Positions 1,436-53,093 are shown, counted from the first letter of the stretch. The stretch is 64,000 nucleotides of DNA from Escherichia coli (GCF_024223415.1 NZ_CP100500.1), one strand, 5' to 3'. The notes: generated from the sequence alone by a model not told the origin. Numbers and translations: made by a program.

Positions 1436-2599
1436 GTGGAACAGATTAATTCAAATAAAAAACATTCTAACAGAAGAAAATACTTTTCTTTATTGGCGAT
1501 AGTTTTATTTATTGCGTTTTCAGGTGCTTATGCCTATTGGTCAATGGAATTAGAAGACATGATTAGTACAGATGACGCCTATGTCACGGGGAATGCAGAT
1601 CCAATTTCTGCACAAGTCTCAGGTAGTGTCACTGTAGTTAATCATAAAGATACGAACTACGTTCGACAGGGTGACATTTTAGTTTCACTGGATAAAACTG
1701 ATGCCACTATCGCACTCAATAAAGCTAAAAATAATCTGGCAAATATTGTTCGGCAAACGAATAAACTGTACTTACAGGATAAACAATACAGTGCCGAAGT
1801 CGCTTCAGCACGTATTCAGTATCAACAATCTTTAGAAGATTATAACCGTCGTGTGCCTTTAGCGAAGCAGGGGGTTATTTCAAAAGAAACGCTGGAGCAT
1901 ACCAAAGATACGTTAATAAGTAGCAAAGCGGCATTGAATGCCGCTATCCAGGCTTATAAAGCGAATAAAGCTTTAGTAATGAACACACCATTAAACCGTC
2001 AGCCACAAGTCGTTGAAGCTGCGGATGCAACCAAAGAAGCCTGGTTGGCGCTTAAACGTACGGATATTAAGAGTCCGGTTACCGGCTATATTGCCCAGAG
2101 AAGTGTTCAGGTCGGCGAAACAGTGAGCCCCGGACAATCGTTAATGGCTGTCGTACCGGCACGTCAAATGTGGGTTAATGCCAACTTTAAAGAAACACAA
2201 CTCACGGATGTACGGATTGGTCAATCGGTCAATATTATCAGCGATCTTTATGGTGAAAATGTTGTGTTTCATGGCCGGGTGACAGGGATCAATATGGGAA
2301 CCGGCAATGCGTTCTCCTTATTACCTGCACAAAATGCGACAGGGAACTGGATCAAAATCGTTCAGCGTGTACCGGTTGAAGTTTCTCTTGATCCAAAAGA
2401 ACTCATGGAACACCCCTTGCGCATTGGTTTATCGATGACTGCAACTATTGATATGAAGGACGAAGACATTGCTGAGATGCCTGATCTGGCTTCAACCGTG
2501 ACCTCCATGCCTGCTTATACCAGTAAGGCTTTAGTTATCGATACCAGTCCGATAGAAAAAGAAATTAGCAACATTATTTCGCATAATGGACAACTTTAA
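1436..2599 (+). CDS. emrK: Multidrug efflux membrane fusion protein EmrK (EmrA paralog)
   Basis: 387-aa ORF with N-terminal TM anchor and HlyD/EmrA-like coiled-coil; stop overlaps emrY start (TAATG). Confidence 0.92.
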   Translation: MEQINSNKKHSNRRKYFSLLAIVLFIAFSGAYAYWSMELEDMISTDDAYVTGNADPISAQVSGSVTVVNHKDTNYVRQGDILVSLDKTDATIALNKAKNNLANIVRQTNKLYLQDKQYSAEVASARIQYQQSLEDYNRRVPLAKQGVISKETLEHTKDTLISSKAALNAAIQAYKANKALVMNTPLNRQPQVVEAADATKEAWLALKRTDIKSPVTGYIAQRSVQVGETVSPGQSLMAVVPARQMWVNANFKETQLTDVRIGQSVNIISDLYGENVVFHGRVTGINMGTGNAFSLLPAQNATGNWIKIVQRVPVEVSLDPKELMEHPLRIGLSMTATIDMKDEDIAEMPDLASTVTSMPAYTSKALVIDTSPIEKEISNIISHNGQL

Positions 2600-4137
2600 T
2601 GGCAATCACTAAATCAACTCCGGCACCATTAACCGGTGGGACGTTATGGTGCGTCACTATTGCATTGTCATTAGCGACGTTTATGCAAATGTTGGATTCC
2701 ACTATTTCTAACGTCGCAATACCGACAATATCTGGCTTTCTGGGAGCATCAACAGACGAAGGCACCTGGGTTATCACCTCGTTTGGCGTAGCAAATGCCA
2801 TTGCGATCCCTGTTACCGGCAGGCTGGCACAAAGAATAGGCGAATTAAGGTTATTTTTACTTTCAGTCACTTTTTTTTCGCTGTCTTCCTTAATGTGTAG
2901 TTTATCGACCAATCTTGATGTGCTGATATTTTTTAGAGTCGTTCAGGGATTAATGGCGGGGCCGTTAATTCCACTGTCACAGAGTTTATTATTAAGGAAT
3001 TATCCACCAGAAAAAAGAACATTTGCTCTGGCATTATGGTCTATGACCGTGATTATCGCTCCGATATGTGGGCCGATATTAGGCGGTTATATTTGTGATA
3101 ACTTTAGCTGGGGTTGGATATTTTTAATCAATGTCCCTATGGGGATTATCGTCCTGACATTATGCTTAACCTTACTTAAAGGAAGAGAAACTGAGACTTC
3201 ACCGGTCAAAATGAATCTACCAGGACTGACCCTGTTAGTGCTCGGTGTTGGTGGCTTGCAAATTATGCTTGATAAAGGGCGCGATCTGGATTGGTTCAAC
3301 TCGAGTACAATAATAATATTAACAGTAGTATCAGTTATTTCTCTGATCTCTTTAGTCATTTGGGAGTCGACCTCAGAGAACCCGATTCTTGATCTCAGTT
3401 TGTTTAAGTCCCGTAACTTCACCATTGGTATTGTGAGTATCACATGCGCGTATTTATTTTACTCTGGAGCGATAGTCCTTATGCCGCAGTTACTCCAGGA
3501 AACAATGGGGTATAATGCGATTTGGGCTGGGCTTGCTTATGCGCCCATCGGCATCATGCCGCTATTAATATCACCTTTGATAGGACGTTATGGCAACAAA
3601 ATTGATATGCGGTTGTTGGTGACATTTAGTTTTTTAATGTATGCGGTTTGCTATTACTGGCGTTCTGTGACATTTATGCCAACGATTGATTTTACAGGCA
3701 TCATTTTGCCACAGTTTTTTCAGGGATTCGCCGTCGCCTGTTTCTTTTTACCCTTAACAACGATTTCGTTTTCAGGTTTGCCAGATAATAAATTTGCCAA
3801 TGCCTCGAGTATGAGTAATTTTTTTCGTACCTTGTCAGGATCAGTTGGTACGTCGTTGACAATGACGCTGTGGGGACGCCGAGAATCATTACACCATAGT
3901 CAGTTGACAGCAACCATCGATCAATTTAACCCCGTGTTTAATTCATCGTCACAAATTATGGATAAATACTATGGTTCGCTTTCAGGGGTTCTTAATGAAA
4001 TTAATAATGAAATAACTCAGCAGTCACTTTCAATTTCTGCAAATGAGATTTTCCGTATGGCGGCTATTGCTTTTATCTTACTTACGGTATTGGTTTGGTT
4101 TGCGAAACCGCCGTTTACAGCGAAAGGTGTTGGGTGA
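2599..4137 (+). CDS. emrY: MFS multidrug efflux pump EmrY (EmrB paralog, 14-TMS DHA2 family)
   Basis: 512-aa highly hydrophobic ORF MAITKSTPAPLTGGTLWCVTIAL...; operon partner of emrK. Confidence 0.92.
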   Translation: MAITKSTPAPLTGGTLWCVTIALSLATFMQMLDSTISNVAIPTISGFLGASTDEGTWVITSFGVANAIAIPVTGRLAQRIGELRLFLLSVTFFSLSSLMCSLSTNLDVLIFFRVVQGLMAGPLIPLSQSLLLRNYPPEKRTFALALWSMTVIIAPICGPILGGYICDNFSWGWIFLINVPMGIIVLTLCLTLLKGRETETSPVKMNLPGLTLLVLGVGGLQIMLDKGRDLDWFNSSTIIILTVVSVISLISLVIWESTSENPILDLSLFKSRNFTIGIVSITCAYLFYSGAIVLMPQLLQETMGYNAIWAGLAYAPIGIMPLLISPLIGRYGNKIDMRLLVTFSFLMYAVCYYWRSVTFMPTIDFTGIILPQFFQGFAVACFFLPLTTISFSGLPDNKFANASSMSNFFRTLSGSVGTSLTMTLWGRRESLHHSQLTATIDQFNPVFNSSSQIMDKYYGSLSGVLNEINNEITQQSLSISANEIFRMAAIAFILLTVLVWFAKPPFTAKGVG

Positions 4138-4245
4138 TGGTAAAAAGAGAGAGCTATAGCAGGTAAGACGGTAGAATCTTAAGCCTGCGCCATCGGCAGC
4201 ATCGCTCACCCAGGGAAAGGATGGCGATGCTGCATTGAAAATTAA

Positions 4246-5574
4246 TTAGCGGCCTTTTGCCAGATATTGCTCCATCTCTTCTTCCGGCACCATTCCACCT
4301 CCCGTCGCCCACACCAGATGAGTGGCATTACGCAGTTGTTCTGCGCTGAAACCGTGCATCTGTTGGTAACTTACTGATGCGCACACGCGCTGAGGCCCGG
4401 CCATACCCGCCAGTGCCGAAGGTTCAAGACGAATACCTTCTTCCTGCGTCAGCCAGCCAAGCATGTCATACATGGTTGGATCGCTAAGGGTATAGAAGCC
4501 ATCCAGCAGACGCTCCATTGCCCGCCCGACAAAGCCTGATGCGCGACCAACAGCAAGGCCATCCGCTGCGGTAAGGTTGTCGATACCAATATCCTGAACA
4601 GAGATCTGATCGTGTAATCCTGTATGGACGCCTAACAGCATACAAGGGGAGTGCGTTGGTTCGGCAAAAAAACAGTGAACATGATCGCCAAACGCCAGTT
4701 TAAGTCCGAATGCGACGCCACCAGGACCACCGCCAACACCACACGGCAGATAGACAAACAGAGGGTTATCAGCATCGACGATACGACCTTGCTCGGCAAA
4801 TTGCGCTTTAAGACGCTGGCCAGCGACGGAATACCCAAGGAACAACGTGCGGGAATTTTCGTCATCAATAAAGAAACAGTTCGGGTCAGACTGCGCTGCT
4901 TTACGTCCTTCCTCGACGGCAACACCATAATCTTGCTCATATTCCACGACCGTAACGCCATGGCTGCGCAGTTTCGCTTTTTTCCATGCCCGGGCATCAG
5001 CAGACATATGCACTGTCACCTTAAAGCCAATGCGGGCGCTCATAATGCCGATTGATAACCCCAGATTTCCGGTTGAGCCCACAGCAATGCTGTATTGGCT
5101 AAAGAACTGTTTAAACTCCGGAGAAAGCAGTTTGCTGTAGTCATCATCAAGCGTCAGCAACCCCGCTTCCAGAGCCAGTTTTTCTGCGTGTGCCAGGACT
5201 TCATAAATCCCGCCGCGTGCTTTTATGGAGCCGGAAATGGGCAAATGGCTATCTTTTTTCAGTAACAGTTGCCCGCTGATCGGTTGTTGATATTCCTTTT
5301 CCAGCCGTTTTTGCATAGCCGGAATGGCAACCAGTTCTGATTCAATAATCCCCCCAGTGGCAGCAGTTTCAGGAAATGCTTTTGCCAGATAGGGTGCAAA
5401 ACGGGATAAGCGCGCATGGGCGTCCTGAACATCCTGTTCGGTCAGGCCAACATAAGGTAAACCTTCAGCCAATGAGGTCGTGCCAGGATTAAACCAGGTG
5501 GTTTCTTTAAGAGCAACCAGATCCTTTACCAACGGATACTGGGCGATGAGCGAGTTCATTTTAGCGTTTTCCAT
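4246..5574 (-). CDS. dsdA: D-serine dehydratase (PLP-dependent)
   Basis: 442-aa [22 protein letters not shown]... with PLP-lysine motif region SGSIKARGG; convergent with emrY. Confidence 0.93.
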
Positions 5575-5591
5575 AGTACGTCTCTTTGCGC

Positions 5592-5810
5592 TTAGATGAT
5601 AAATGACAGCAGGAATGTGCCCGCCAGAGCGACGACTGAAGCGATAAATGTCGCTGTCGTATAGTATTTAAATGTTTCATTGAGCGTAGCGCCGCAATAT
5701 TGCTTCACCAGCCAGAAAAGCGAGTCCGTAACGATCGTGCAGCCAATCGCGCCTGAACCGATAGCAATCGTAATAATTTCCGGGCTGATGTCGGGATACA
5801 GCGGCAGCAC
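5592..5810 (-). pseudogene. dsdX: 3' remnant of D-serine permease gene dsdX (GntP family), truncated at the csc island junction
   Basis: 72-aa hydrophobic ORF ending ...[18 protein letters not shown] immediately upstream of dsdA, matching a GntP-type C-terminus; no full-length permease ORF upstream; similarity is lost near 5810-5830 where cscR upstream sequence begins. Confidence 0.7.
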
Positions 5811-6040
5811 AATGATCCATATTTATATTTTCTTCTCCAGGTTGGCGATGCCAGTTGGCATGTTTTACTTACTTGCCTATATGGTTACTCGTTGGCGAGA
5901 ACAGAGGCGGAATTGGGGACAATTGTCCGGGAATTATTGTTATTTTTTATTGTATTGCCGTGTCAGGTGATAGGGCGTTGGATCTCGCCAGTGACGTCTG
6001 TTTCTGCTACAGTGCCCGTTTTACGGCAAACGGCTTGGAT

Positions 6041-7036
6041 ATGGCTTCATTAAAGGATGTCGCACGCCTGGCGGGAGTGTCGATGATGACAGTCTCCCGG
6101 GTGATGCATAATGCAGAATCTGTGCGTCCTGCAACGCGTGACCGCGTATTGCAGGCAATCCAGACCCTGAATTATGTTCCTGATCTTTCCGCCCGTAAGA
6201 TGCGCGCTCAAGGACGTAAGCCGTCGACTCTCGCCGTGCTGGCGCAGGACACTGCTACCACTCCTTTCTCTGTTGATATTCTGCTTGCCATTGAGCAAAC
6301 CGCCAGCGAGTTCGGCTGGAATAGTTTTTTAATCAATATTTTTTCTGAAGATGACGCTGCCCGCGCGGCACGTCAGCTGCTTGCTCACCGTCCGGATGGC
6401 ATTATCTATACTACAATGGGGCTGCGACATATCACGCTGCCTGAGTCTCTGTATGGTGAAAATATTGTATTGGCGAACTGTGTGGCGGATGACCCAGCGT
6501 TACCCAGTTATATCCCTGATGATTACACTGCACAATATGAATCAACACAGCATTTGCTCGCGGCGGGCTATCGTCAACCGTTATGCTTCTGGCTACCGGA
6601 AAGTGCGTTGGCAACAGGGTATCGTCGGCAGGGATTTGAGCAGGCCTGGCGTGATGCTGGACGAGATCTGGCTGAGGTGAAACAATTTCACATGGCAACA
6701 GGTGATGATCACTACACCGATCTCGCAAGTTTACTCAATGACCACTTCAAATCGGGCAAACCAGATTTTGATGTTCTGATATGTGGTAACGATCGCGCAG
6801 CCTTTGTGGCTTATCAGGTTCTCCTGGCGAAGGGGGTACGTATCCCGCAGGATGTCGCCGTAATGGGCTTTGATAATCTGGTTGGCGTCGGGCATCTGTT
6901 TTTACCGCCGCTGACCACAATTCAGCTTCCACATGACATTATCGGGCGGGAAGCTGCATTGCATATTATTGAAGGTCGTGAAGGGGGAAGTGTGACGCGG
7001 ATCCCTTGCCCGCTGTTGATCCGTTGTTCCACCTGA
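6041..7036 (+). CDS. cscR: Sucrose operon repressor CscR (LacI/GalR family)
   Basis: ORF contains MASLKDVARLAGVSMMTVSRVMHN (LacI-type HTH) followed by a periplasmic-binding-like domain; start placed at internal ATG 6041 rather than the ORF-track start 5855. Confidence 0.88.
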   Translation: MASLKDVARLAGVSMMTVSRVMHNAESVRPATRDRVLQAIQTLNYVPDLSARKMRAQGRKPSTLAVLAQDTATTPFSVDILLAIEQTASEFGWNSFLINIFSEDDAARAARQLLAHRPDGIIYTTMGLRHITLPESLYGENIVLANCVADDPALPSYIPDDYTAQYESTQHLLAAGYRQPLCFWLPESALATGYRRQGFEQAWRDAGRDLAEVKQFHMATGDDHYTDLASLLNDHFKSGKPDFDVLICGNDRAAFVAYQVLLAKGVRIPQDVAVMGFDNLVGVGHLFLPPLTTIQLPHDIIGREAALHIIEGREGGSVTRIPCPLLIRCST

Positions 7037-7043
7037 TATTATG

Positions 7044-8477
7044 CTAACCCAGTTGCCAGAGTGCTCCATGTTGCACCACAGCCACTCCGTGGGAGGCATA
7101 AAGCGACAGTTCCCGTTCTTCTGGCTGCGGATAGATTCGACTACTCATCACCGCTTCCCCGTCGTTAATAAATACTTCCACGGATGATGTATCGATAAAT
7201 ATCCTTAGGGCGAGCGTCTCACCCTGCGGGAGGAGAATACTACGGTAGCCGTCTAAATTCTCGTGTGGGTAATACCGCCACAAAACAAGTCGCTCAGATT
7301 GGTTATCAATATACAGCCGCATTCCTGTGCCGAGCTGTAATCCGTAATGTTCGGCATCACTGTTCTTCAGCGCCCACTGCAACTGAATCTCAACTGCTTG
7401 CGCGTTTTCCTGCAAAACATATTTATTGCTGATTGTGCGGGGAGAGATAGATTGATGCTGCTGGCGTAACGACTCAGCTTCGTGTACCGGGCGTTGTAGA
7501 AGTTTGCCATTGCTCTCTGATAGCTCGCGCGCCAGCGTCATGCAGCCTGCCCAGCCTTCACGTTTTGAGGGCATTGGCGATTCCCACATATCCATCCAGC
7601 CGATAACAATACGCCGACCATCCTTCGCTACAAAGCTTTGTGGTGCATAAAAGTCATGCCCGTTATCAAGTTCAGTAAAATGCCCGGATTGTGCAAAAAG
7701 TCGTCCTGGCGACCACATTTCGGGTATTACGCCACTTTGAAAGCGATTTCGGTAACTGTATCCCTCGGCCTTCATTCCCTGCGGGGAAAACATCAGATAA
7801 TGCTGATCGCCAAGGCTGAAAAAGTCCGGACATTCCCACATATAGCTTTCACCCGCATCAGCGTGGGCCAGTACGCGATCGAAAGTCCATTCACGTAATG
7901 AACTGCCGCGATAAAGCAGGATCTGCCCCGTGTTGCCTGGGTCTTTCGCCCCGACTACCATCCACCATGAGTCGGCTTCACGCCACACTTTAGGATCGCG
8001 GAAGTGCATGATTCCTTCTGGTGGAGTGAGGATCACACCCTGTTTCTCGAAATGAATACCATCCCGACTGGTAGCCAGACATTGTACTTCGCGAATTGCA
8101 TCGTCATTACCTGCACCATCGAGCCAGACGTGTCCGGTGTAGATAAGTGAGAGGACACCATTGTCATCGACAGCACTACCTGAAAAACACCCGTCTTTGT
8201 CATTCTCGTCTCCTGGCGCTAGCGCAATAGGCTCATGCTGCCAGTGGATCATATCGTCGCTGGTGGCATGTCCCCAGTGCATTGGCCCCCAGTGTTCGCT
8301 CATCGGGTGATGTTGATAAAACGCGTGATAACGATTGTTAAACCAGATCAGGCCGTTTGGATCGTTCATCCACCCGGCAGGAGGCGCGAGGTGAAAATGG
8401 GGATAGAAAGTGTTACCTCGGCGCTCGTGAAGTTTTGCTAGTGCGTTTTGCGCCGCATGCAATCGAGATTGCGTCAT
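7044..8477 (-). CDS. cscA: Sucrose-6-phosphate hydrolase / invertase CscA (GH32)
   Basis: GH32 motifs WMNDPNG, FRDP and WECPD present; start placed at MTQSRL (477 aa); ORF track gives a 3-codon longer alternative (8486). Confidence 0.9.
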   Translation of the reverse strand: MTQSRLHAAQNALAKLHERRGNTFYPHFHLAPPAGWMNDPNGLIWFNNRYHAFYQHHPMSEHWGPMHWGHATSDDMIHWQHEPIALAPGDENDKDGCFSGSAVDDNGVLSLIYTGHVWLDGAGNDDAIREVQCLATSRDGIHFEKQGVILTPPEGIMHFRDPKVWREADSWWMVVGAKDPGNTGQILLYRGSSLREWTFDRVLAHADAGESYMWECPDFFSLGDQHYLMFSPQGMKAEGYSYRNRFQSGVIPEMWSPGRLFAQSGHFTELDNGHDFYAPQSFVAKDGRRIVIGWMDMWESPMPSKREGWAGCMTLARELSESNGKLLQRPVHEAESLRQQHQSISPRTISNKYVLQENAQAVEIQLQWALKNSDAEHYGLQLGTGMRLYIDNQSERLVLWRYYPHENLDGYRSILLPQGETLALRIFIDTSSVEVFINDGEAVMSSRIYPQPEERELSLYASHGVAVVQHGALWQLG

Positions 8478-8510
8478 TTTTATCATCCTGGTTAAGCAAA
8501 TTTGGTGAAT

Positions 8511-8523
8511 TGTTAACGTTAAC
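8511..8523. promoter_or_regulatory. Candidate CscR operator 1 (TGTTAACGTTAAC) in cscA-cscK divergent region
   Basis: Exact 13-bp copy of a palindrome-containing motif, repeated 64 bp away, between divergently transcribed cscA and cscK. Confidence 0.4.
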
Positions 8524-8574
8524 TTTAATAAAAATAAAGTCCCTTACTTTCATAAATGCGATGAATATCACAAA

Positions 8575-8587
8575 TGTTAACGTTAAC
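8575..8587. promoter_or_regulatory. Candidate CscR operator 2 (TGTTAACGTTAAC)
   Basis: Second exact copy of the 13-bp motif at 8511-8523. Confidence 0.4.
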
Positions 8588-8692
8588 TATGACATTTTGT
8601 GATCGAATATGCATGTTTTAGTTAATCCATGACGATTTTGCGAAAAAGAGGTTTATCACTATGCGTAAGTCAGATGAATTTAAGGGAAAAAA

Positions 8693-9607
8693 ATGTCAGC
8701 CAAAGTATGGGTTTTAGGGGATGCGGTAGTAGATCTCTTGCCAGAATCAGACGGGCGCCTACTGCCTTGTCCTGGCGGCGCGCCAGCTAACGTTGCGGTG
8801 GGAATCGCCAGATTAGGCGGAATAAGTGGGTTTATAGGTCGGGTCGGTGATGATCCTTTTGGTGCATTAATGCAAAGAACGCTGCTAACTGAGGGAGTCG
8901 ATATCACGTATCTGAAGCAAGATGAATGGCACCGGACATCCACGGTGCTTGTCGATCTGAACGATCAAGGGGAACGTTCATTTACGTTTATGGTCCGCCC
9001 CAGTGCCGATCTTTTTTTAGAGACGACAGACTTGCCCTGCTGGCGACATGGCGAATGGTTACATCTCTGTTCAATTGCGTTGTCTGCCGAGCCTTCGCGT
9101 ACCAGCGCATTTACTGCGATGACGGCGATCCGGCATGCCGGAGGTTTTGTCAGCTTCGATCCCAATATTCGTGAAGATCTATGGCAAGACGAGCATTTGC
9201 TCCGCTTGTGTTTGCGGCAGGCGCTACAACTGGCGGATGTCGTCAAGCTCTCGGAAGAAGAATGGCGACTTATCAGTGGAAAAACACAGAACGATCGGGA
9301 TATATGCGCCCTGGCAAAAGAGTATGAGATCGCCATGCTGTTGGTGACTAAAGGTGCAGAAGGGGTGGTGGTCTGTTATCGAGGACAAGTTCACCATTTT
9401 GCTGGAATGTCTGTGAATTGTGTTGATAGCACGGGGGCGGGAGATGCGTTCGTTGCCGGGTTACTCACAGGTCTGTCCTCTACGGGATTATCTACAGATG
9501 AGAGAGAAATGCGACGAATTATCGATCTCGCTCAACGTTGCGGAGCGCTTGCAGTAACAGCGAAAGGGGCAATGACAGCGCTGCCATGTCGACAAGAACT
9601 GGAATAG
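8693..9607 (+). CDS. cscK: Fructokinase CscK (PfkB/ribokinase family)
   Basis: 304-aa ORF MSAKVWVLGDAVVDLL... with C-terminal DSTGAGDAF sugar-kinase motif. Confidence 0.9.
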   Translation: MSAKVWVLGDAVVDLLPESDGRLLPCPGGAPANVAVGIARLGGISGFIGRVGDDPFGALMQRTLLTEGVDITYLKQDEWHRTSTVLVDLNDQGERSFTFMVRPSADLFLETTDLPCWRHGEWLHLCSIALSAEPSRTSAFTAMTAIRHAGGFVSFDPNIREDLWQDEHLLRLCLRQALQLADVVKLSEEEWRLISGKTQNDRDICALAKEYEIAMLLVTKGAEGVVVCYRGQVHHFAGMSVNCVDSTGAGDAFVAGLLTGLSSTGLSTDEREMRRIIDLAQRCGALAVTAKGAMTALPCRQELE

Positions 9608-9678
9608 TGAGAAGTAAACGGCGAAGTCGCTCTTATCTCTAAATAGGACGTGAATTTTTTAACGACAGGCAGGTAATT

Positions 9679-31655: not shown

Positions 31656-32480
31656 ATGAACAAAACCGCGATTGCGCTGCTGGCCCTGCTTGCCAGTAGC
31701 GCCAGCCTGGCAGCGACGCCGTGGCAAAAAATAACCCAACCTGTGCCGGGTAGCGCACAATCGATAGGCAGTTTTTCTAATGGCTGTATCGTCGGCGCTG
31801 ACACGCTGCCGATACAGTCCGAACATTATCAGGTCATGCGTACCGATCAGCGTCGCTATTTCGGTCACCCGGACCTGGTGATGTTTATCCAACGTCTGAG
31901 TAGCCAGGTGAGCAATCTGGGTATGGGGACGGTGCTGATTGGCGATATGGGGATGCCCGCTGGTGGGCGTTTCAACGGCGGTCATGCCAGCCACCAGACC
32001 GGACTGGATGTCGATATCTTTCTGCAACTGCCGAAAACTCGCTGGACCTCCGCGCAGCTCTTGCGCCCGCAAGCACTGGACTTAGTATCCCGCGACGGTA
32101 AACACGTTGTCTCCACGCTGTGGAAGCCAGAAATTTTCAGCTTGATCAAACTCGCCGCCCAGGACAAAGACGTCACGCGCATTTTTGTTAATCCGGCGAT
32201 TAAACAACAACTTTGCCTTGATGCGGGCACCGATCGCGACTGGTTGCGCAAAGTGCGACCCTGGTTCCAGCATCGCGCGCATATGCATGTACGATTACGT
32301 TGCCCTGCCGATAGTCTGGAGTGTGAAGATCAACCTTTACCGCCATCAGGCGATGGTTGCGGGGCAGAACTGCAAAGCTGGTTTGAACCTCCAAAACCGG
32401 GAACAACAAAGCCTGAGAAGAAGACACCGCCTCCGTTGCCGCCTTCCTGCCAGGCGCTACTGGATGAGCACGTGATCTAA
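31656..32480 (+). CDS. mepA: Penicillin-insensitive murein DD-endopeptidase MepA
   Basis: 274-aa ORF with signal peptide [23 protein letters not shown]... and LAS-family metallopeptidase motifs. Confidence 0.92.
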
Positions 32481-33289
32481 TGGAAACGTTTAATAGCCTG
32501 TTTATGGTTTCCCCGCTGTTGCTGGGAGTTCTCTTTTTTGTCGCCATGCTGGCGGGATTTATCGACTCGATTGCCGGTGGTGGTGGGTTACTCACGATTC
32601 CGGCATTAATGGCAGCGGGGATGTCTCCCGCTAATGCGCTGGCAACCAATAAACTGCAAGCCTGCGGCGGCTCTATTTCCGCCACTATCTACTTTATTCG
32701 CCGCAAAGTGGTTAGTTTAAGCGATCAGAAACTCAATATCGCCATGACCTTTATCGGCTCAATGAGCGGCGCACTGCTGGTGCAATACGTTCAGGCTGAT
32801 GTCTTACGGCAGATTTTGCCCATTCTGGTGATTTGTATCGGCCTCTATTTCTTGCTGATGCCAAAGCTGGGTGAAGAAGATCGCCAGCGCCGGATGTACG
32901 GTTTACCCTTCGCGTTAATTGCCGGTGGCTGCGTCGGTTTTTATGACGGATTCTTTGGTCCGGCAGCCGGATCGTTTTACGCGCTGGCCTTTGTTACGCT
33001 GTGCGGATTCAACCTCGCCAAAGCCACGGCTCACGCCAAATTACTCAACGCAACGTCAAACATCGGCGGTTTACTGCTGTTTATTCTCGGCGGCAAAGTG
33101 ATTTGGGCGACGGGCTTTGTGATGCTAGTGGGGCAGTTCCTCGGCGCGCGCATGGGTTCAAGACTGGTGTTGAGCAAAGGACAAAAACTGATCCGCCCGA
33201 TGATCGTTATCGTCTCGGCGGTGATGAGTGCCAAATTACTTTACGATAGCCACGGACAGGAGATCCTCCACTGGTTGGGGATGAACTAA
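32480..33289 (+). CDS. yfcA: TauE/SafE-family inner membrane protein YfcA
   Basis: 269-aa hydrophobic ORF; start overlaps mepA stop. Confidence 0.88.
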   Translation: METFNSLFMVSPLLLGVLFFVAMLAGFIDSIAGGGGLLTIPALMAAGMSPANALATNKLQACGGSISATIYFIRRKVVSLSDQKLNIAMTFIGSMSGALLVQYVQADVLRQILPILVICIGLYFLLMPKLGEEDRQRRMYGLPFALIAGGCVGFYDGFFGPAAGSFYALAFVTLCGFNLAKATAHAKLLNATSNIGGLLLFILGGKVIWATGFVMLVGQFLGARMGSRLVLSKGQKLIRPMIVIVSAVMSAKLLYDSHGQEILHWLGMN

Positions 33290-33837
33290 TGAACAGTACA
33301 CACCACTATGAGCAGTTGATTGAAATTTTTAATAGCTGCTTTGCCGATGATTTTAATACCCGTCTGATTAAAGGCGACGACGAACCGATCTATCTTCCTG
33401 CTGATGCGGAAGTACCGTATAACCGAATCGTCTTTGCTCATGGCTTTTATGCCAGCGCAATTCATGAGATTTCGCACTGGTGTATTGCCGGAAAAGCGCG
33501 CCGTGAGCTGGTTGATTTCGGCTACTGGTATTGCCCGGACGGACGCGATGCCCAAACGCAAAGCCAGTTTGAAGATGTTGAAGTGAAGCCGCAGGCGCTC
33601 GACTGGTTGTTCTGCGTGGCGGCTGGATATCCGTTTAACGTCAGTTGCGACAATCTGGAAGGCGACTTCGAACCGGACCGCGTGGTGTTTCAACGGCGAG
33701 TACATGCGCAGGTGATGGATTATCTAACAAATGGCATTCCGGAACGCCCGGCACGTTTCATTAAAGCACTACAAAATTATTATCACACGCCGGAAATTAC
33801 GGCGGAACAGTTCCCGTGGCCGGAAGCGCTCAACTGA
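33289..33837 (+). CDS. epmC: EF-P beta-lysyl-lysine hydroxylase EpmC (YfcM)
   Basis: 182-aa ORF MNSTHHYEQLIEIFNSCFADDFNTRLIKGDDEP...; start overlaps yfcA stop. Confidence 0.88.
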   Translation: MNSTHHYEQLIEIFNSCFADDFNTRLIKGDDEPIYLPADAEVPYNRIVFAHGFYASAIHEISHWCIAGKARRELVDFGYWYCPDGRDAQTQSQFEDVEVKPQALDWLFCVAAGYPFNVSCDNLEGDFEPDRVVFQRRVHAQVMDYLTNGIPERPARFIKALQNYYHTPEITAEQFPWPEALN

Positions 33838-36434: not shown

Positions 36435-37655
36435 ATGAAACGTGCAGTGATTACTGGCCTGGGCATTGTTTCCAGCATCGGTAATAACCAGCAGGAAGTC
36501 CTGGCATCTCTGCGTGAAGGACGTTCAGGGATCACTTTCTCTCAGGAGCTGAAGGATTCCGGCATGCGTAGCCACGTCTGGGGCAACGTAAAACTGGATA
36601 CCACTGGCCTCATTGACCGCAAAGTTGTGCGCTTTATGAGCGACGCATCCATTTATGCATTCCTTTCTATGGAGCAGGCAATCGCAGATGCGGGCCTTTC
36701 TCCGGAAGCTTACCAGAATAACCCGCGCGTTGGCCTGATTGCAGGTTCCGGCGGCGGCTCCCCGCGTTTCCAGGTGTTCGGCGCTGACGCAATGCGCGGT
36801 CCGCGCGGCCTGAAAGCGGTTGGCCCATATGTGGTCACCAAAGCGATGGCATCCGGCGTTTCTGCCTGTCTCGCCACGCCGTTTAAAATTCATGGCGTTA
36901 ACTACTCCATCAGCTCCGCGTGTGCGACTTCCGCACACTGTATCGGTAACGCAGTAGAGCAGATCCAACTGGGCAAACAGGACATCGTGTTTGCTGGCGG
37001 CGGCGAAGAGCTGTGCTGGGAAATGGCTTGCGAATTCGACGCAATGGGTGCGCTGTCTACTAAATACAACGACACCCCGGAAAAAGCCTCCCGTACTTAC
37101 GACGCTCACCGTGACGGTTTCGTTATCGCTGGCGGCGGCGGTATGGTGGTGGTTGAAGAGCTGGAACACGCGCTGGCGCGTGGTGCTCATATCTATGCTG
37201 AAATCGTTGGCTACGGCGCAACGTCTGATGGCGCAGACATGGTTGCTCCGTCTGGCGAAGGCGCAGTACGTTGTATGCAGATGGCGATGCATGGCGTTGA
37301 TACACCAATCGATTACCTGAACTCTCACGGTACTTCGACTCCGGTTGGCGACGTGAAAGAGCTGGCAGCTATCCGTGAAGTGTTCGGCGATAAGAGCCCG
37401 GCGATTTCTGCAACCAAAGCCATGACCGGTCACTCTCTGGGCGCTGCTGGCGTACAGGAAGCTATCTACTCTCTGCTGATGCTGGAACACGGCTTTATCG
37501 CCCCGAGCATCAACATTGAAGAGCTGGACGAGCAGGCTGCGGGTCTGAACATCGTGACCGAAACGACCGATCGCGAACTGACCACTGTTATGTCTAACAG
37601 TTTCGGCTTCGGCGGCACCAACGCCACGCTGGTAATGCGCAAGCTGAAAGATTAA
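36435..37655 (+). CDS. fabB: 3-oxoacyl-ACP synthase I (KAS I)
   Basis: 406-aa [36 protein letters not shown]... with active-site Cys region. Confidence 0.95.
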
Positions 37656-37660
37656 TTCGC

Positions 37661-37740
37661 AGTAGGCCGGAGTAGGTCGGATAAGACGCGCCAGCGTCGC
37701 ATCCGACGTTACGCGCCAATGCGGCATCCGGCACTAACGC
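37661..37740. repeat. REP elements downstream of fabB
   Basis: GTAGGTCGGATAAGACGCGCCAGCGTCGCATCCGAC and GCGCCAATGCGGCATCCGGCAC palindromic units. Confidence 0.7.
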
Positions 37741-37926: not shown

Positions 37927-40100
<2,174 letters not shown>

Positions 40101-41400: not shown

Positions 41401-42414
41401 ATGTCTGAAGGCTGGAACATTGCCGTCCTGGGCGCAACTGGCGCTGTGGGCGAAGCCCTGCTTGAAACGCTGGCTGAACGTCAGTTCCCGGTTGGGGAAA
41501 TTTATGCACTGGCACGTAACGAAAGCGCAGGCGAACAACTGCGCTTTGGTGGTAAGACAATCACCGTGCAGGATGCCGCTGAATTCGACTGGACGCAGGC
41601 GCAGCTGGCATTTTTTGTCGCAGGCAAAGAAGCTACCGCTGCCTGGGTTGAAGAAGCGACCAACTCAGGTTGCCTGGTGATCGACAGCAGCGGATTGTTT
41701 GCTCTCGAACCCGACGTACCGCTGGTGGTGCCGGAAGTAAACCCGTTTGTACTGACCGATTACCGCAACCGGAATGTCATCGCCGTACCAGACAGTCTGA
41801 CCAGCCAGCTGCTGGCGGCACTGAAACCGTTAATCGATCAGGGCGGTTTGTCGCGTATCAGCGTTACCAGCCTGATTTCAGCCTCCGCACAGGGTAAAAA
41901 AGCGGTCGATGCGTTAGCGGGGCAGAGTGCTAAATTGCTCAACGGCATTCCGATTGACGAAGAAGATTTCTTCGGGCGTCAGCTGGCGTTCAACATGCTG
42001 CCGTTACTGCCGGATAGCGAAGGTAGCGTGCGTGAAGAACGTCGTATCGTTGACGAAGTACGCAAAATCCTGCAGGACGAAGGACTGATGATTTCGGCAA
42101 GCGTCGTCCAGGCACCGGTATTCTACGGTCATGCCCAGATGGTCAACTTTGAAGCTCTGCGTCCGCTGGCAGCAGAAGAAGCGCGTGATGCGTTTGTTCA
42201 AGGCGAAGATATTGTGCTCTCTGAAGAGAACGAATTCCCGACTCAGGTAGGGGATGCTTCGGGTACGCCGCATCTTTCTGTTGGCTGTGTGCGTAATGAC
42301 TACGGTATGCCGGAGCAAGTCCAGTTCTGGTCGGTGGCTGATAACGTTCGCTTTGGCGGCGCGCTGATGGCAGTAAAAATCGCCGAGAAACTGGTGCAGG
42401 AGTATCTGTACTAA
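41401..42414 (+). CDS. usg: USG-1 protein (aspartate-semialdehyde dehydrogenase paralog)
   Basis: 337-aa [27 protein letters not shown]... with Rossmann GxxGxxG. Confidence 0.9.
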
Positions 42415-43226
42415 TGTCCGACCAGCAACAACTGCCAGTTTATAAAATTGCGCTGGGCATTGAGTACGACGGCAGTAAGTATTACGGCTGGCAACGGCAG
42501 AACGAAGTTCGCAGTGTGCAGGAGAAGCTGGAAAAGGCGCTCTCCCAGGTGGCGAACGAACCCATCACCGTCTTCTGCGCCGGGCGTACTGACGCAGGGG
42601 TACACGGTACCGGGCAGGTTGTGCATTTCGAAACAACCGCGCAGCGCAAAGACGCTGCGTGGACGTTGGGCGTAAATGCGAATTTACCTGGTGACATCGC
42701 CGTGCGTTGGGTTAAAGCTGTACCTGATGATTTTCATGCCCGATTTAGCGCCACGGCTCGCCGTTATCGCTATATCATCTACAATCATCGGCTGCGCCCG
42801 GCGGTACTGAGTAAAGGGGTAACCCATTTTTACGAACCGCTGGACGCTGAACGGATGCATCGGGCTGCGCAATGCTTGCTGGGCGAGAATGATTTCACCT
42901 CGTTCCGTGCGGTGCAGTGCCAGTCCCGAACCCCGTGGCGCAACGTTATGCATATTAATGTCACGCGTCACGGTCCTTATGTGGTGGTTGATATCAAAGC
43001 GAATGCCTTTGTACATCATATGGTCAGGAATATTGTCGGCAGCCTGATGGAAGTCGGTGCCCACAACCAGCCGGAGAGCTGGATAGCAGAGTTGCTGGCG
43101 GCAAAGGACAGAACGCTGGCGGCAGCAACGGCAAAAGCGGAAGGGCTGTATCTGGTCGCGGTGGATTACCCTGACCGGTATGATCTTCCAAAACCGCCAA
43201 TGGGCCCGCTATTTCTGGCGGACTAA
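42414..43226 (+). CDS. truA: tRNA pseudouridine(38-40) synthase
   Basis: 270-aa ORF with catalytic motif region RTDAGVH; start overlaps usg stop. Confidence 0.93.
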
Positions 43227-45107: not shown

Positions 45108-46376
45108 ATGATTATCAAACGCACTCCTCAAGCCGCGTCGCCTCTGGCTTCGTGGCTTTCTTATCTGGAAAACCTGCACAGTAAAACTATCGATCTCGGC
45201 CTTGAGCGCGTGAGCCAGGTCGCGGCGCGTCTTGGCGTTCTGAAACCAGCGCCATTTGTGTTTACCGTTGCGGGTACGAATGGCAAAGGCACCACCTGCC
45301 GTACGCTGGAGTCGATTCTGATGGCGGCAGGGTACAAAGTGGGCGTCTACAGTTCGCCTCATCTGGTGCGTTATACCGAGCGCGTACGTGTGCAGGGTCA
45401 GGAATTGCCGGAATCGGCCCACACCGCCTCTTTTGCGGAGATTGAATCGGCACGCGGTGATATTTCCCTGACCTATTTCGAGTACGGTACGCTGTCGGCG
45501 TTGTGGCTGTTCAAACAGGCACAACTTGACGTGGTGATTCTGGAAGTAGGGCTGGGCGGTCGTCTGGACGCAACCAATATTGTCGACGCCGATGTCGCGG
45601 TAGTAACCAGTATTGCGCTGGATCATACCGACTGGCTGGGGCCAGATCGCGAAAGTATTGGTCGCGAGAAAGCAGGCATCTTCCGCAGCGAAAAACCGGC
45701 AATTGTCGGTGAGCCGGAAATGCCTTCTACCATTGCTGATGTGGCGCAGGAAAAAGGTGCACTGTTACAACGTCGGGGCGTTGAGTGGAACTATTCCGTC
45801 ACCGATCATGACTGGACGTTTAGCGATGCTCACGGCACGCTGGAAAACCTGCCGTTGCCGCTTATCCCGCAACCGAATGCCGCAACGGCGCTGGCGGCAC
45901 TGCGTGCCAGCGGGCTGGAGGTCAGTGAAAATGCCATTCGCGACGGGATTGCCAGCGCAATTTTGCCGGGACGTTTCCAGATTGTGAGCGAGTCGCCACG
46001 CGTTATTTTTGATGTCGCGCATAATCCACATGCGGCGGAATATCTCACCGGGCGTATGAAAGCGCTACCGAAAAACGGGCGCGTGCTGGCGGTTATCGGT
46101 ATGCTACATGATAAAGATATTGCCGGAACTCTGGCCTGGTTGAAAAGCGTGGTTGATGACTGGTATTGTGCGCCACTGGAAGGGCCGCGCGGTGCCACGG
46201 CAGAACAACTGCTTGAGCATTTGGGTAACGGCAAATCATTTGATAGCGTTGCGCAGGCATGGGATGCCGCAATGGCGGACGCTAAAGCGGAAGACACCGT
46301 GCTGGTGTGTGGTTCTTTCCACACGGTCGCACATGTCATGGAAGTGATTGACGCGAGGAGAAGCGGTGGCAAGTAA
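45108..46376 (+). CDS. folC: Dihydrofolate synthase / folylpolyglutamate synthase
   Basis: 422-aa ORF with P-loop AGTNGKGTT. Confidence 0.93.
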   Translation: MIIKRTPQAASPLASWLSYLENLHSKTIDLGLERVSQVAARLGVLKPAPFVFTVAGTNGKGTTCRTLESILMAAGYKVGVYSSPHLVRYTERVRVQGQELPESAHTASFAEIESARGDISLTYFEYGTLSALWLFKQAQLDVVILEVGLGGRLDATNIVDADVAVVTSIALDHTDWLGPDRESIGREKAGIFRSEKPAIVGEPEMPSTIADVAQEKGALLQRRGVEWNYSVTDHDWTFSDAHGTLENLPLPLIPQPNAATALAALRASGLEVSENAIRDGIASAILPGRFQIVSESPRVIFDVAHNPHAAEYLTGRMKALPKNGRVLAVIGMLHDKDIAGTLAWLKSVVDDWYCAPLEGPRGATAEQLLEHLGNGKSFDSVAQAWDAAMADAKAEDTVLVCGSFHTVAHVMEVIDARRSGGK

Positions 46377-47037: not shown

Positions 47038-47395
<358 letters not shown>

Positions 47396-47503: not shown

Positions 47504-47559
47504 TTTCTGTTAGAATGCGCCCCGAACAGGATGACAGGGCGTAAAATCGTGGGACACAT

Positions 47560-48048: not shown

Positions 48049-48084
48049 GTGCTCTGAGATGTGGCTTAACGAGGAAAAAGACGT

Positions 48085-49602: not shown

Positions 49603-49696
49603 TGCCTTCGCTCAGGGTGCCGGTCTGGCACCCTGACTTGCAACTCCCGCCGAAATCCTGCAAAGTCTGCCTGCAAGTCTGACAGGGCAACTATTT

Positions 49697-50266
49697 ATGA
49701 AACGACTTATTGTGGGCATCAGCGGTGCCAGCGGCGCGATTTATGGCGTGCGCTTATTACAGGTTTTGCGCGATGTCACAGATATCGAAACGCATCTGGT
49801 GATGAGCCAGGCAGCGCGCCAGACCTTATCCCTCGAAACGGATTTTTCCCTGCGCGAAGTGCAGGCATTAGCCGATGTCACGCATGATGCGCGCGATATT
49901 GCCGCCAGCATCTCTTCCGGTTCTTTCCAGACACTGGGGATGGTGATTTTACCCTGTTCAATCAAAACCCTGTCCGGCATTGTCCATAGCTATACTGATG
50001 GCTTACTGACCCGTGCGGCAGATGTTGTGCTGAAAGAGCGTCGCCCGTTGGTGCTCTGCGTGCGTGAAACACCATTGCACTTAGGCCATCTGCGTTTAAT
50101 GACGCAGGCAGCAGAAATCGGTGCGGTGATTATGCCTCCCGTTCCGGCGTTTTATCATCGCCCGCAATCCCTTGATGATGTGATAAATCAGACGGTTAAT
50201 CGTGTTCTTGACCAGTTTGCAATAACCCTTCCTGAAGATCTCTTTGCCCGCTGGCAGGGCGCATAA
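49697..50266 (+). CDS. ubiX: Flavin prenyltransferase UbiX
   Basis: 189-aa ORF MKRLIVGISGASGAIYGVRLLQVL... Confidence 0.93.
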   Translation: MKRLIVGISGASGAIYGVRLLQVLRDVTDIETHLVMSQAARQTLSLETDFSLREVQALADVTHDARDIAASISSGSFQTLGMVILPCSIKTLSGIVHSYTDGLLTRAADVVLKERRPLVLCVRETPLHLGHLRLMTQAAEIGAVIMPPVPAFYHRPQSLDDVINQTVNRVLDQFAITLPEDLFARWQGA

Positions 50267-50447
50267 CTCCGCTGTTGCCCTGTTTCAGGGCAATTTTGCA
50301 ACCGCGATCAAATCCTCGACATTTTGTTTCTGCCATTCAATCGAAACGCTGCGATTCAACCGCTATACCTGCTATCTTCAACTTTAGGACAATAATGCAA
50401 CGTCTTATTAACATATTTAACGTTGAATGTTACTGTTGTCGTCAAGA

Positions 50448-50463
50448 TGGCATAAGACCTGCA
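50448..50463 (+). promoter_or_regulatory. Candidate sigma-54 promoter (TGGCAT-N5-CTGCA) upstream of argT
   Basis: -24/-12-like element TGGCATAAGACCTGCA about 70 bp upstream of argT; argT is recalled as nitrogen-regulated. Confidence 0.45.
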
Positions 50464-50531
50464 TGAAAGAGCCTGCAAACACACAACACAATACACAACA
50501 TAAAAAAGCCATTTTCACTTGAGGGTTATGT

Positions 50532-51314
50532 ATGAAGAAGTCGATTCTCGCTCTGTCTTTGTTAGTCGGTCTCTCCGCAGCGGCTTCCAGCTATGCGGCG
50601 CTACCGGAGACGGTACGTATCGGAACCGATACCACCTATGCGCCGTTCTCGTCGAAAGATGCTAAAGGTGATTTTGTTGGCTTTGATATCGATCTCGGTA
50701 ACGAGATGTGCAAACGGATGCAGGTGAAATGTACCTGGGTTGCCAGTGACTTTGACGCGCTGATCCCCTCACTGAAAGCGAAAAAAATCGACGCCATTAT
50801 TTCGTCGCTTTCCATTACCGATAAACGTCAGCAGGAGATTGCCTTCTCCGACAAGCTGTACGCCGCAGATTCTCGTTTGATTGCCGCCAAAGGTTCGCCG
50901 ATTCAGCCAACGCTGGATTCACTGAAAGGTAAACATGTGGGTGTGCTGCAGGGATCAACCCAGGAAGCTTACGCTAACGAGACCTGGCGTAGCAAAGGCG
51001 TGGATGTGGTGGCCTATGCCAACCAGGATTTGGTCTATTCCGATCTGGCTGCAGGACGTCTGGATGCCGCACTGCAGGATGAAGTGGCGGCCAGCGAAGG
51101 TTTCCTCAAGCAACCCGCCGGTAAAGAGTTCGCTTTTGCTGGCTCATCAGTGAAAGACAAAAAATACTTCGGTGATGGCACCGGTGTAGGGCTACGTAAA
51201 GATGATACTGAACTGACGGCTGCGTTTAATAAGGCGCTTGGAGAGCTGCGTCAGGACGGCACCTACGACAAGATGGCGAAAAAGTATTTCGACTTTAATG
51301 TCTACGGTGACTGA
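50532..51314 (+). CDS. argT: Lysine/arginine/ornithine periplasmic binding protein
   Basis: 260-aa ORF with signal peptide; paralog of the downstream hisJ. Confidence 0.93.
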
Positions 51315-51534
51315 TACGTCGCAGGGAAGCTGTGCCTGATGGAATGATCATCATGGTGCACGCCAGGTTTGTTGCACTATCGTGGTGCATTGAAATGCAT
51401 ACTTAAGCATTTTTAATGAAAAATAATACGTCTAACGGGGCGGGATATTTTGCCTTGATGGTCAATTTTATGGCACGATAAGTGTAACAAACCTGTAAAT
51501 ATTCCCTATAAAAAGACTGTCAGTTGAGGACATT

Positions 51535-52317
51535 ATGAAAAAACTGGTGCTATCGCTCTCTCTGGTTCTGGCCTTCTCCAGCGCAACTGCGGCATTTGCT
51601 GCGATTCCGCAAAACATCCGCATCGGTACCGACCCGACCTATGCGCCATTTGAATCAAAAAATTCACAAGGCGAACTGGTTGGCTTCGATATCGATCTGG
51701 CAAAGGAATTATGCAAACGCATCAATACGCAATGTACGTTTGTCGAAAATCCGCTGGATGCGTTAATCCCGTCCTTAAAAGCGAAGAAGATTGACGCCAT
51801 CATGTCATCGCTTTCCATTACGGAAAAACGTCAGCAAGAAATAGCCTTCACCGACAAACTGTACGCTGCCGATTCTCGTCTGGTGGTGGCGAAAAATTCT
51901 GACATTCAGCCGACAGTCGAGTCGCTGAAAGGCAAACGGGTAGGCGTATTGCAGGGCACCACCCAGGAGACGTTCGGTAATGAACATTGGGCACCAAAAG
52001 GCATTGAAATCGTCTCGTATCAGGGGCAGGACAACATTTATTCTGACCTGACTGCCGGACGTATTGATGCCGCGTTCCAGGATGAGGTCGCTGCCAGCGA
52101 AGGTTTCCTCAAACAACCTGTCGGTAAAGATTACAAATTCGGTGGCCCGTCTGTTAAAGATGAAAAACTGTTTGGCGTAGGGACCGGCATGGGCCTGCGT
52201 AAAGAAGATAACGAACTGCGCGAGGCACTGAACAAAGCCTTTGCTGAAATGCGCGCTGACGGTACTTACGAGAAATTAGCGAAAAAGTACTTCGATTTTG
52301 ATGTTTATGGTGGCTAA
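51535..52317 (+). CDS. hisJ: Histidine periplasmic binding protein
   Basis: 260-aa [45 protein letters not shown]... Confidence 0.93.
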
Positions 52318-52406
52318 TCACCATCGGTGAAAGAAAGCCCGCTCCCTTCGGGTAACCGGAGGGAGACAAGAGGCGGTAATTCACCACACACGACAGGACA
52401 GGCTGC

Positions 52407-53093
52407 ATGTTGTATGGGTTTTCAGGTGTTATTTTACAGGGTGCGCTCGTCACGCTGGAGCTGGCTATCAGCTCTGTAGTGCTCGCTGTAACCATCGGTT
52501 TAATTGGCGCTGGCGGTAAGCTCTCGCAAAATCGGCTTTCGGGGCTGATTTTCGAAGGGTACACCACGCTGATTCGTGGCGTGCCGGACTTAGTGTTGAT
52601 GCTGCTGATTTTCTACGGTTTGCAGATTGCGCTAAACACGGTGACGGAGGCGATGGGCGTCGGGCAGATTGATATCGATCCGATGGTCGCTGGTATTATC
52701 ACTCTCGGTTTTATCTACGGTGCTTATTTTACCGAAACGTTCCGTGGTGCTTTTATGGCAGTGCCGAAAGGACATATAGAGGCGGCGACGGCGTTCGGTT
52801 TTACTCGTGGGCAAGTGTTTCTGCGGATCATGTTTCCGGCGATGATGCGTTACGCCCTGCCAGGCATTGGCAACAACTGGCAGGTGATCCTCAAATCTAC
52901 CGCACTGGTTTCGTTACTCGGCCTGGAAGATGTGGTCAAAGCCACGCAGCTGGCAGGCAAAAGTACCTGGGAACCGTTCTATTTCGCCATCGTCTGTGGC
53001 GTGATTTACCTGGTTTTCACCACCGTTTCCAATGGTGTGCTGCTGTTCCTTGAGCGCCGCTACTCCGTGGGTGTGAAGAGGGCTGACCTGTGA
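52407..53093 (+). CDS. hisQ: Histidine ABC transporter permease HisQ
   Basis: 228-aa hydrophobic ORF with ABC permease EAA-like loop. Confidence 0.92.
   Translation: MLYGFSGVILQGALVTLELAISSVVLAVTIGLIGAGGKLSQNRLSGLIFEGYTTLIRGVPDLVLMLLIFYGLQIALNTVTEAMGVGQIDIDPMVAGIITLGFIYGAYFTETFRGAFMAVPKGHIEAATAFGFTRGQVFLRIMFPAMMRYALPGIGNNWQVILKSTALVSLLGLEDVVKATQLAGKSTWEPFYFAIVCGVIYLVFTTVSNGVLLFLERRYSVGVKRADL

Follow-up and report, generated by a model that had tools for sequence, protein, structure and literature searches.

When a gene ends on bases that also belong to the start codon of the following gene, is that shared codon a genuine translation start, and does output of the second gene depend on translation of the first? 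The question is raised by a 64,000-nucleotide (nt) stretch of the Escherichia coli chromosome (GCF_024223415.1, NZ_CP100500.1; hereafter the window), which runs from emrKY to pta and in which an earlier note, made from the sequence alone, had listed a series of stop/start overlaps as indicating translational coupling. We find that the overlaps are ordinary, already catalogued E. coli operon junctions of a known class, in which 1, 4 or 11 bases are shared, and we consider it likely that downstream output at these junctions is coupled to translation of the upstream gene.

The gene order of the window (evgS-evgA / emrKY ... hisJQMP ... pta-ackA) is that of K-12 MG1655 at 2.414-2.487 Mb in reverse orientation, and its first 20 kb show up to 99.9-100% identity to E. 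coli chromosomes and are matched in 5,425 of 5,426 genomes. Each junction was read directly in the sequence and then compared with two reference annotations, that of K-12 MG1655 and the Prokaryotic Genome Annotation Pipeline (PGAP) annotation of strain KV7, which is 99.9% identical to the window. Fifty-seven genes were mapped onto the window, and all 57 gave an intact open reading frame (ORF) on translation. Shine-Dalgarno (SD) strength is expressed as the energy of the duplex with the anti-SD sequence, in kcal/mol, and is called strong at -5.5 or better. Distances between genes are given as registers, negative where the genes overlap. For comparison across species, a scan with TruA provided 80 species-representative loci that span Enterobacteriaceae to Erwiniaceae and carry ±10 kb on either side, in which orthologues were found by tblastn and then extended to their stop codons; fadI/fadJ and emrK/emrY lie beyond that flank and were compared through homologue look-ups.

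Overlapped stop codons and the starts they imply

At five junctions the overlap is a single nucleotide, the final A of the stop codon being the first base of ATG, and the shared coordinate agrees in both annotations (Table 1). The earlier note had reported this arrangement at emrK/emrY and fadI/fadJ and had described the starts of yfcA, epmC and truA as coinciding with the stops of mepA, yfcA and usg, respectively; all five are borne out as TAATG by the sequence and by both annotations. Four-nucleotide overlaps of the ATGA type were read correctly at yfcR/yfcQ and yfcQ/yfcP. The hisQ/hisM junction has the geometry that had been claimed for it but not the tetramer, which is GTGA, since hisM starts with GTG in the window and in K-12 alike. 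Eight same-strand junctions are thus of the class in which a stop shares bases with the next start, as TAATG, TGATG, TAGTG or NTGA, at a register of -1 or -4. Two overlaps had been absent from the earlier note: folC and dedD share 11 nt, and on the minus strand the TGA of evgL, a nine-codon leader ORF (1017-1046), overlaps the ATG of evgA. The sequence GGGAGAAGGGAG lies directly upstream of evgL.

Table 1. Coordinates, in the window, of the gene junctions and of SD motifs embedded in upstream genes.
Feature	Coordinates	Strand	Source or property
evgL (1046..1017, MLHCKGNNL*) stop / evgA start, ATGA, 4-nt overlap	1017..1020	-	K-12 annotation, window sequence
emrK stop / emrY start, TAATG, 1-nt overlap at 2599	2597..2601	+	sequence, K-12, KV7
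SD motif UGGAGG of fadJ, within fadI coding sequence	18782..18787	+	-9.3 kcal/mol, spacing 6
fadI stop / fadJ start, TAATG, 1-nt overlap at 18795	18793..18797	+	sequence, K-12, KV7
yfcR stop / yfcQ start, ATGA, 4-nt overlap	26849..26852	+	sequence, K-12, KV7
yfcQ stop / yfcP start, ATGA, 4-nt overlap; start contested by PGAP	27334..27337	+	sequence, K-12
yfcP stop TAA, 1-nt gap, yfcO ATG (TAAAATG), no overlap	27871..27877	+	sequence, K-12, KV7
mepA stop / yfcA start, TAATG, 1-nt overlap at 32480	32478..32482	+	sequence, K-12, KV7
yfcA stop / epmC start, TAATG, 1-nt overlap at 33289	33287..33291	+	sequence, K-12, KV7
yfcJ/flk stop/stop overlap TTAA: yfcJ TAA 39106-39108 (+), flk TAA 39105-39107 (-)	39105..39108	.	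sequence, K-12, KV7
SD motif CAGGAG of truA, within usg (codons Gln-Glu)	42397..42402	+	-6.9 kcal/mol
usg stop / truA start, TAATG, 1-nt overlap at 42414	42412..42416	+	sequence, K-12, KV7
SD motif GAGGAGA of dedD, within folC	46355..46361	+	-8.9 kcal/mol
folC/dedD 11-nt overlap: dedD GTG at 46366, folC stop 46374-46376	46366..46376	+	sequence, K-12, KV7
SD motif AAGAGGG of hisM, within hisQ	53076..53082	+	-6.3 kcal/mol
hisQ stop / hisM start, GTGA, 4-nt overlap	53090..53093	+	sequence, K-12

The ribosome-binding sites of the downstream genes sit within the 3' ends of the upstream genes. Because a co-directional overlap leaves no space for an intervening terminator or promoter, the geometry supports the operon structure that the earlier note had read from it, and in both the K-12 and the KV7 annotation every pair consists of neighbours within an operon. 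An Rfam scan of the window returned only a tRNA-Arg and three naRNA4/REP copies, none of them at any junction.

Sharing bases with a stop codon is no proof of a start. Among 57 stop codons in the window, TG follows at 10, of which five are gene starts, and seven lie within NTGA, of which three are gene starts; about half of these motifs are therefore not starts, and a bare stop+TG or NTGA motif is not diagnostic of one. Some or all of the overlaps could on this ground be annotation artefacts, produced by choosing the longest ORF when the true start lies downstream. Such an error did occur at yfcP/yfcO as the junction was first described, it probably occurred at a yfcS/yfcR overlap annotated in K-12, PGAP starts yfcP at another codon, and stop+TG arises by chance at about 10% of stops. 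As an account of the remaining junctions, however, it is so improbable that we give it almost no weight. Apart from yfcP, the two annotations concur on the remaining eight, and their start codons are kept from genus to genus or between divergent alleles. In emrY, yfcA, epmC, truA and hisM no start codon of the ORF precedes the overlapped one, which in truA is also the only start codon within 90 nt, and SD motifs stand at the right spacing. The annotated fadJ start is not that of the longest possible ORF, which would begin at ATG 18747 with a poor SD match, and this argues that the annotations are not merely longest-ORF calls. FadJ chains in the PDB (8bnr, 6ysv and others) are 714 aa long and begin at the annotated methionine, as recombinant constructs; HisM had no PDB match at E ≤ 1e-30.

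The SD motifs point in the same direction. A duplex of -5.5 kcal/mol or better is found at seven of the nine overlapped starts when folC/dedD is included (six of eight without it), compared with 8% of internal coding positions, and the two distributions differ clearly (Mann-Whitney p=3e-5). The median for overlapped starts equals that for ordinary starts (-6.2 and -5.8 kcal/mol, respectively). Weak matches are those of emrY (-3.0 kcal/mol) and yfcA (-3.1 kcal/mol).

The junctions of the yfc fimbrial genes are those at which starts are contested. A 14-nt overlap of yfcP and yfcO had been reported, but it rests on TTG 27860, the start reached mechanically by extending yfcO to its longest ORF, which has no SD motif (+0.7 kcal/mol). 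Both annotations place the start at ATG 27875, from which YfcO begins with the classical signal peptide MKTIRLIICLLAGLFQIISFSAKA, and the pair does not belong to the -1/-4 class. For yfcP, the KV7 PGAP annotation (WP_229986680.1) starts at 27385, 51 nt downstream of the ATGA start, which is the one used in K-12. Starting at 27385 would reduce the signal peptide to about 10 residues, MFAISGPSYA, ahead of the predicted cleavage site, and the SD match there is -3.0 kcal/mol as against -5.9 kcal/mol at the ATGA start, whose methionine is the sole one aligned between the window and K-12 alleles (72% nucleotide identity). The PGAP start of yfcP is probably wrongly called and the ATGA start genuine; across the yfc junctions, ATGA is kept between window and K-12 alleles that are only 67-76% identical. 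A third case is yfcR. In this strain (26326-26348) yfcS ends in TGATG, yet the ATG is out of frame with yfcR, which starts 15 nt downstream of the yfcS TGATG, behind the strong SD motif GGGAGA. The K-12 annotation has a -1 overlap of yfcS and yfcR (K-12 2451584), and the K-12 sequence also has a strong SD motif, GGGGGGAG, together with an ATG five codons in; the annotated K-12 start of yfcR is probably over-extended. Each reference annotation would thus err at one junction, PGAP at yfcP and K-12 at yfcR.

Indirect but convergent evidence indicates that the overlapped codons are true starts, except at yfcP/yfcO. The expectation that the overlaps would confirm the chosen starts is upheld at eight of nine co-directional junctions by ORF position, SD motif and register and fails for the start of yfcO, with the correction that hisM starts with GTG. 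Reference annotations, which the earlier note had named as its check, agree with its junctions except at yfcP/yfcO and at the contested yfcP start in KV7.

Conservation of register and of embedded motifs

What goes beyond chance at these junctions is that they pile up at -1 and -4 and that other species keep this clustering. In the window, 8 of 41 unidirectional pairs lie at exactly -1 or -4. In K-12, 707 of 2,987 unidirectional pairs (24%) lie between -8 and +6, the commonest distances being -4 and then -1 (PMC10666635). The corresponding 11 of 41 pairs (27%) in the window do not differ from this genome-wide figure (binomial p=0.37), and an enrichment of the window in tight junctions was rejected on that ground; the idea that it is unusually rich in -1 relative to -4 was dropped, as the ratio of 5:3 rests on too few cases. 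All eleven K-12 distances that we searched for are present in Supplementary Table S2 of the same study (PMC10666635) and match the window: -1 for usg/truA, yfcA/epmC, mepA/yfcA, fadI/fadJ and emrK/emrY, -4 for hisQ/hisM and evgL/evgA, -11 for folC/dedD, and +3, +7 and +4 for aroC/mepA, hisM/hisP and evgA/evgS, respectively.

Across species, the register of usg/truA is -1 in 77 of 80 and +2 in the other three. The usg stop is TGA in about two thirds of species and TAA in one third, giving TGATG or TAATG, and with this toggling at a fixed -1 the register outlives a change of stop codon. Of all junctions in the window, folC/dedD is conserved most rigidly: 74 of 74 species have a register of -11, outside the usual -8 to +6 class, and a GTG start. 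At hisQ/hisM, 55 of 55 species have a register of -4; hisM begins with GTG in 48 of them and with ATG in 7. The register of -1 is found for mepA/yfcA in 16 of the 18 species in which both genes were readable and for yfcA/epmC in 21 of 28, the remainder having a candidate start at -4 to +3. Eight ordinary spacers of the same loci (pdxB-usg, truA-dedA, accD-folC, hisJ-hisQ and others), taken as a control, have 9-31 distinct lengths. Among the homologues looked up separately, fadI/fadJ reads TAATG without change in Salmonella, Citrobacter, Enterobacter, Leclercia and Huaxiibacter. Junctions of the emrK/emrY type range from -1, the value in the loci from Klebsiella sp. and Erwinia sp., through +3 (Serratia) to +8 (Hafnia); the paralogous emrA/emrB junction is at +16. 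As judged from these comparisons, the co-directional register is held almost fixed across Enterobacterales, whereas normal spacers drift.

The embedded SD motifs leave a trace in the codons of the upstream genes. Pooled over five genes, synonymous-codon conservation is 0.90 in the zone from -16 to -4, compared with 0.71 upstream (p=1.5e-5). Both codons of the usg CAG-GAG are synonymously conserved in 80 of 80 species, the GCG-GGG-AGA codons of folC are 97-100% conserved and the AAG-AGG codons of hisQ 95-100%. E. coli disfavours the codons AGG, AGA and GGG, and their retention in the SD zone is the more telling for it. Third positions adjoining the zone drop to 0.4-0.6 conservation, which indicates that divergence among the species is adequate for the comparison. 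Ahead of fadJ, CTGGAGGC is invariant in five other genera and flanking third positions vary. The embedded motifs are thus maintained by selection on synonymous codons, and conservation of this kind in the SD zone of an upstream gene can serve as a sequence-only validation of an overlapped start, one that gives a clear answer here.

Translational coupling or independent initiation

At such a junction, a ribosome ending the upstream cistron would stop only a few bases away from the downstream start. From there it could re-initiate (termination-reinitiation), aided by the embedded SD motif, or it could melt local structure and so allow a new 30S subunit to bind; by either route, the output of the downstream gene would be tied to translation of the upstream one. 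Dependence on the terminating ribosome would be expected to be greatest at weak SD matches, such as those of emrY and yfcA.

The conserved spacing of the genes and the selected SD motifs make translational coupling of these pairs likely. Coupling is efficient at spacings of -8 to +6, and its efficiency is highest between -4 and +3 (PMC12548453); the eight pairs at -1 or -4 fall within this range and folC/dedD, at -11, falls outside it. An SD motif within the upstream ORF, the other feature looked for, is strong in seven of the nine pairs, emrY and yfcA being the weak ones. The sole controlled experiment on native E. coli -4 pairs, which did not include the window pairs, found four of five strictly coupled, and the SD motif was important in four of the five E. 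coli pairs tested (PMC6728339). Huber 2019 (PMC6728339) hypothesised that local RNA structure keeps de novo initiation shut off up to the arrival of the ribosome from upstream. In the window, the median energy needed to open the start region is 10.5 kcal/mol for overlapped starts, 8.4 kcal/mol for independent starts and 12.9 kcal/mol for internal coding positions, and an intermediate value lies in the direction expected if overlapped starts were less self-sufficient.

The overlaps may be real and the downstream start nevertheless independent, a 30S subunit binding de novo at the embedded SD motif and the overlap itself being a by-product of compaction or codon drift. We regard this as possible though rather unlikely. 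It would account for SD motifs that equal those of independent genes and are under selection themselves, it agrees with opening energies not significantly different from those of ordinary starts and with the fact that most pairs are not subunits of a single complex, and it has a precedent in bioBF, a native E. coli -4 pair in which the downstream gene initiates de novo (PMC6728339). Drift does not predict, however, that the register should be nearly invariant in 55-80 species when neighbouring spacers vary, and independent initiation fits poorly with the weak SD matches of emrY and yfcA, with the emrY orthologues of Serratia (+3) and Hafnia (+8), which have essentially no SD match, and with the coupling found in most of the E. 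coli pairs tested.

Several points nonetheless weigh against coupling. Strong, conserved SD motifs would fit de novo initiation equally well, as at bioBF. The difference in opening energy between overlapped and ordinary starts is weak and not significant (p=0.07, n=9), that from internal positions being significant (p=0.014). The 80 species are kin, and the conservation statistics exaggerate their independence, the p-value for synonymous codons being optimistic. The register is variable for yfcA/epmC (-4 to +3) and for emrK/emrY orthologues (-1 to +8), and tightness, rather than overlap as such, may be what counts. No literature experiment on coupling in any of these pairs was found. Only three of the nine overlapping pairs (emrKY, fadIJ and hisQM) are known-complex partners, and a stoichiometric rationale is not apparent for mepA/yfcA/epmC, usg/truA or folC/dedD. 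Finally, yfcU (usher, 22919-25558) carries an in-frame TAG at 23558-23560 where KV7 has TGG (Trp214), which splits the gene into ORFs of 217 and 661 aa; because of the split usher, the yfc operon is probably unable to assemble fimbriae in this strain, and its junctions may be of no current consequence here. The K-12 yfcU is also a pseudogene, broken elsewhere (codon 579).

Stoichiometry is a possible rationale for coupling in emrKY, fadIJ and hisQM, as partners in complexes. In Supplementary Table S2 of PMC10666635, the entries for emrKY and hisQM are complexes, and those for fadIJ and most other pairs are "not"; in contrast to the entry for fadIJ, the PDB names FadJ the alpha subunit of the fatty acid oxidation complex.

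The pairs of the window find close parallels in known systems. The trpB and trpA genes of the E. coli trp operon overlap as TGATG. As in the window, stop and start share one nucleotide and the downstream SD motif lies within the upstream gene; unlike here, coupling was shown experimentally and the products form one enzyme, and only fadIJ, emrKY and hisQM are comparable in their products. The trpB/trpA pair was the first described case of translational coupling, as cited in PMC6728339. The bioB/bioF pair shares with the window a native E. coli ATGA overlap and an embedded SD motif, and experiment showed de novo initiation of bioF, uncoupled from bioB (PMC6728339), whereas in the window pairs coupling is what we infer. 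More generally, the window resembles spatially coupled ORFs (PMC6728339; PMC10666635; PMC12548453) in spacing classes, motif types and the placement of the SD motif within the upstream gene, and differs from them in folC/dedD, whose -11 is outside the reinitiation-typical -8 to +6, and in that most pairs are not one complex. Beyond annotation quality the significance of the junctions is small, overlaps of -1 and -4 being the commonest operon junction in prokaryotes.

One part of the window raises the question of coupling over several genes. The chain aroC(+3)mepA(-1)yfcA(-1)epmC could act as a ribosome relay that fixes the relative outputs of its genes, and its -1 registers are kept in most of the Enterobacteriaceae examined. 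Selected co-production is not required by the evidence, and we hold such a relay to be highly improbable. The product of mepA is a periplasmic murein endopeptidase, YfcA is an uncharacterised TauE/SafE-type membrane protein and the product of epmC is a cytosolic EF-P hydroxylase. If the relay were true, it would point to an unrecognised functional link, for example that YfcA supplies or exports something for EF-P modification or cell-wall turnover.

The convergent yfcJ/flk overlap and other features of the window

The 4-nt overlap of the convergent genes yfcJ and flk that the earlier note had placed at 39105-39108 was confirmed: TTAA holds two TAA stops on opposite strands (Table 1). It has no bearing on translational coupling. 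The tetramer belongs to the YTAR class of stop/stop overlaps (TTAA, CTAA, TTAG, CTAG), the same class (CTAA/TTAA/CTAG/TTAG) that was described by Lillo & Krakauer 2007 (PMC2174442), and E. coli has it as TTAA, Citrobacter and Salmonella as CTAA. The overlap is kept in 17 loci, Escherichia, Citrobacter and Salmonella included, as either TTAA or CTAA. Gaps of 31-93 nt separate the two genes in Enterobacter, Lelliottia, Pseudocitrobacter and other genera, and in further loci 1.5-5 kb is inserted between them.

A convergent overlap could be functional through mutual antisense or RNA-polymerase-collision control, in the manner of an excludon, if both transcripts, lacking a terminator between the genes, ran on into the opposite gene. 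There is no intergenic space between yfcJ and flk, the sole hairpin resembling a yfcJ terminator is found about 50 nt into flk (39156-39172), and the -4 register is held in 17 species despite the change from TTAA to CTAA. We nonetheless consider an excludon-like role improbable. The overlap is limited to those 17 loci and is replaced elsewhere by gaps or inserted genes, and the terminator-like hits do not exceed the expectation from shuffled sequence (5 compared with 2.3±1.9), on which ground a real intrinsic terminator inside flk was rejected. A 4-base stop/stop overlap is also the commonest convergent overlap to be expected, and a stop-codon-mutation model fits the 58 convergent overlaps of E. 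coli (PMC2174442). The yfcJ/flk overlap is probably a lineage-restricted by-product of two TAA stops meeting, without a function of its own. The second tightest convergent pair in the window is that of the csc regulator (+) and cscA (-), with 7 nt between their stops (7036-7044).

The window also differs from K-12 in gene content. A sucrose utilisation cluster at 6041-10926 (LacI-type regulator, cscA, kinase and MFS transporter) stands in place of the K-12 dsdC and most of dsdX, a truncated remnant of which is annotated in KV7 (5592-5810). The tRNA-Arg(CCU) at 11350-11424 is adjoined by a small DUF4942 remnant (11006-11170), where K-12 has prophage CPS-53. In Salmonella, Citrobacter, Enterobacter, Leclercia and Huaxiibacter the interval from sixA to smrB lacks the whole yfc cluster from yfcV to yfcO (22272-28714 in the window), and the window and K-12 alleles of yfcS, yfcR, yfcQ, yfcP and yfcO share just 59-82% DNA identity; on these comparisons, the cluster behaves like a hypervariable inserted island. 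The spacer between dedD and cvpA, 531 nt long here and 258 nt in K-12, contains three tandem matches to the REP-derived Rfam family naRNA4 (47091-47343, 73-81 bits).

Two long ORFs lie opposite known genes, one of 756 aa opposite pta (714 aa; 61390-63660, +) and one of 400 aa opposite fabB (406 aa; 36525-37727, -). Both are presumably shadow ORFs, strikingly long for E. coli. Between mlaA and fadL, on the minus strand at 13663-14943, is an ORF of 426 aa, which is annotated in KV7 as a hypothetical protein of 428 aa; the K-12 yfdF has 352 aa.

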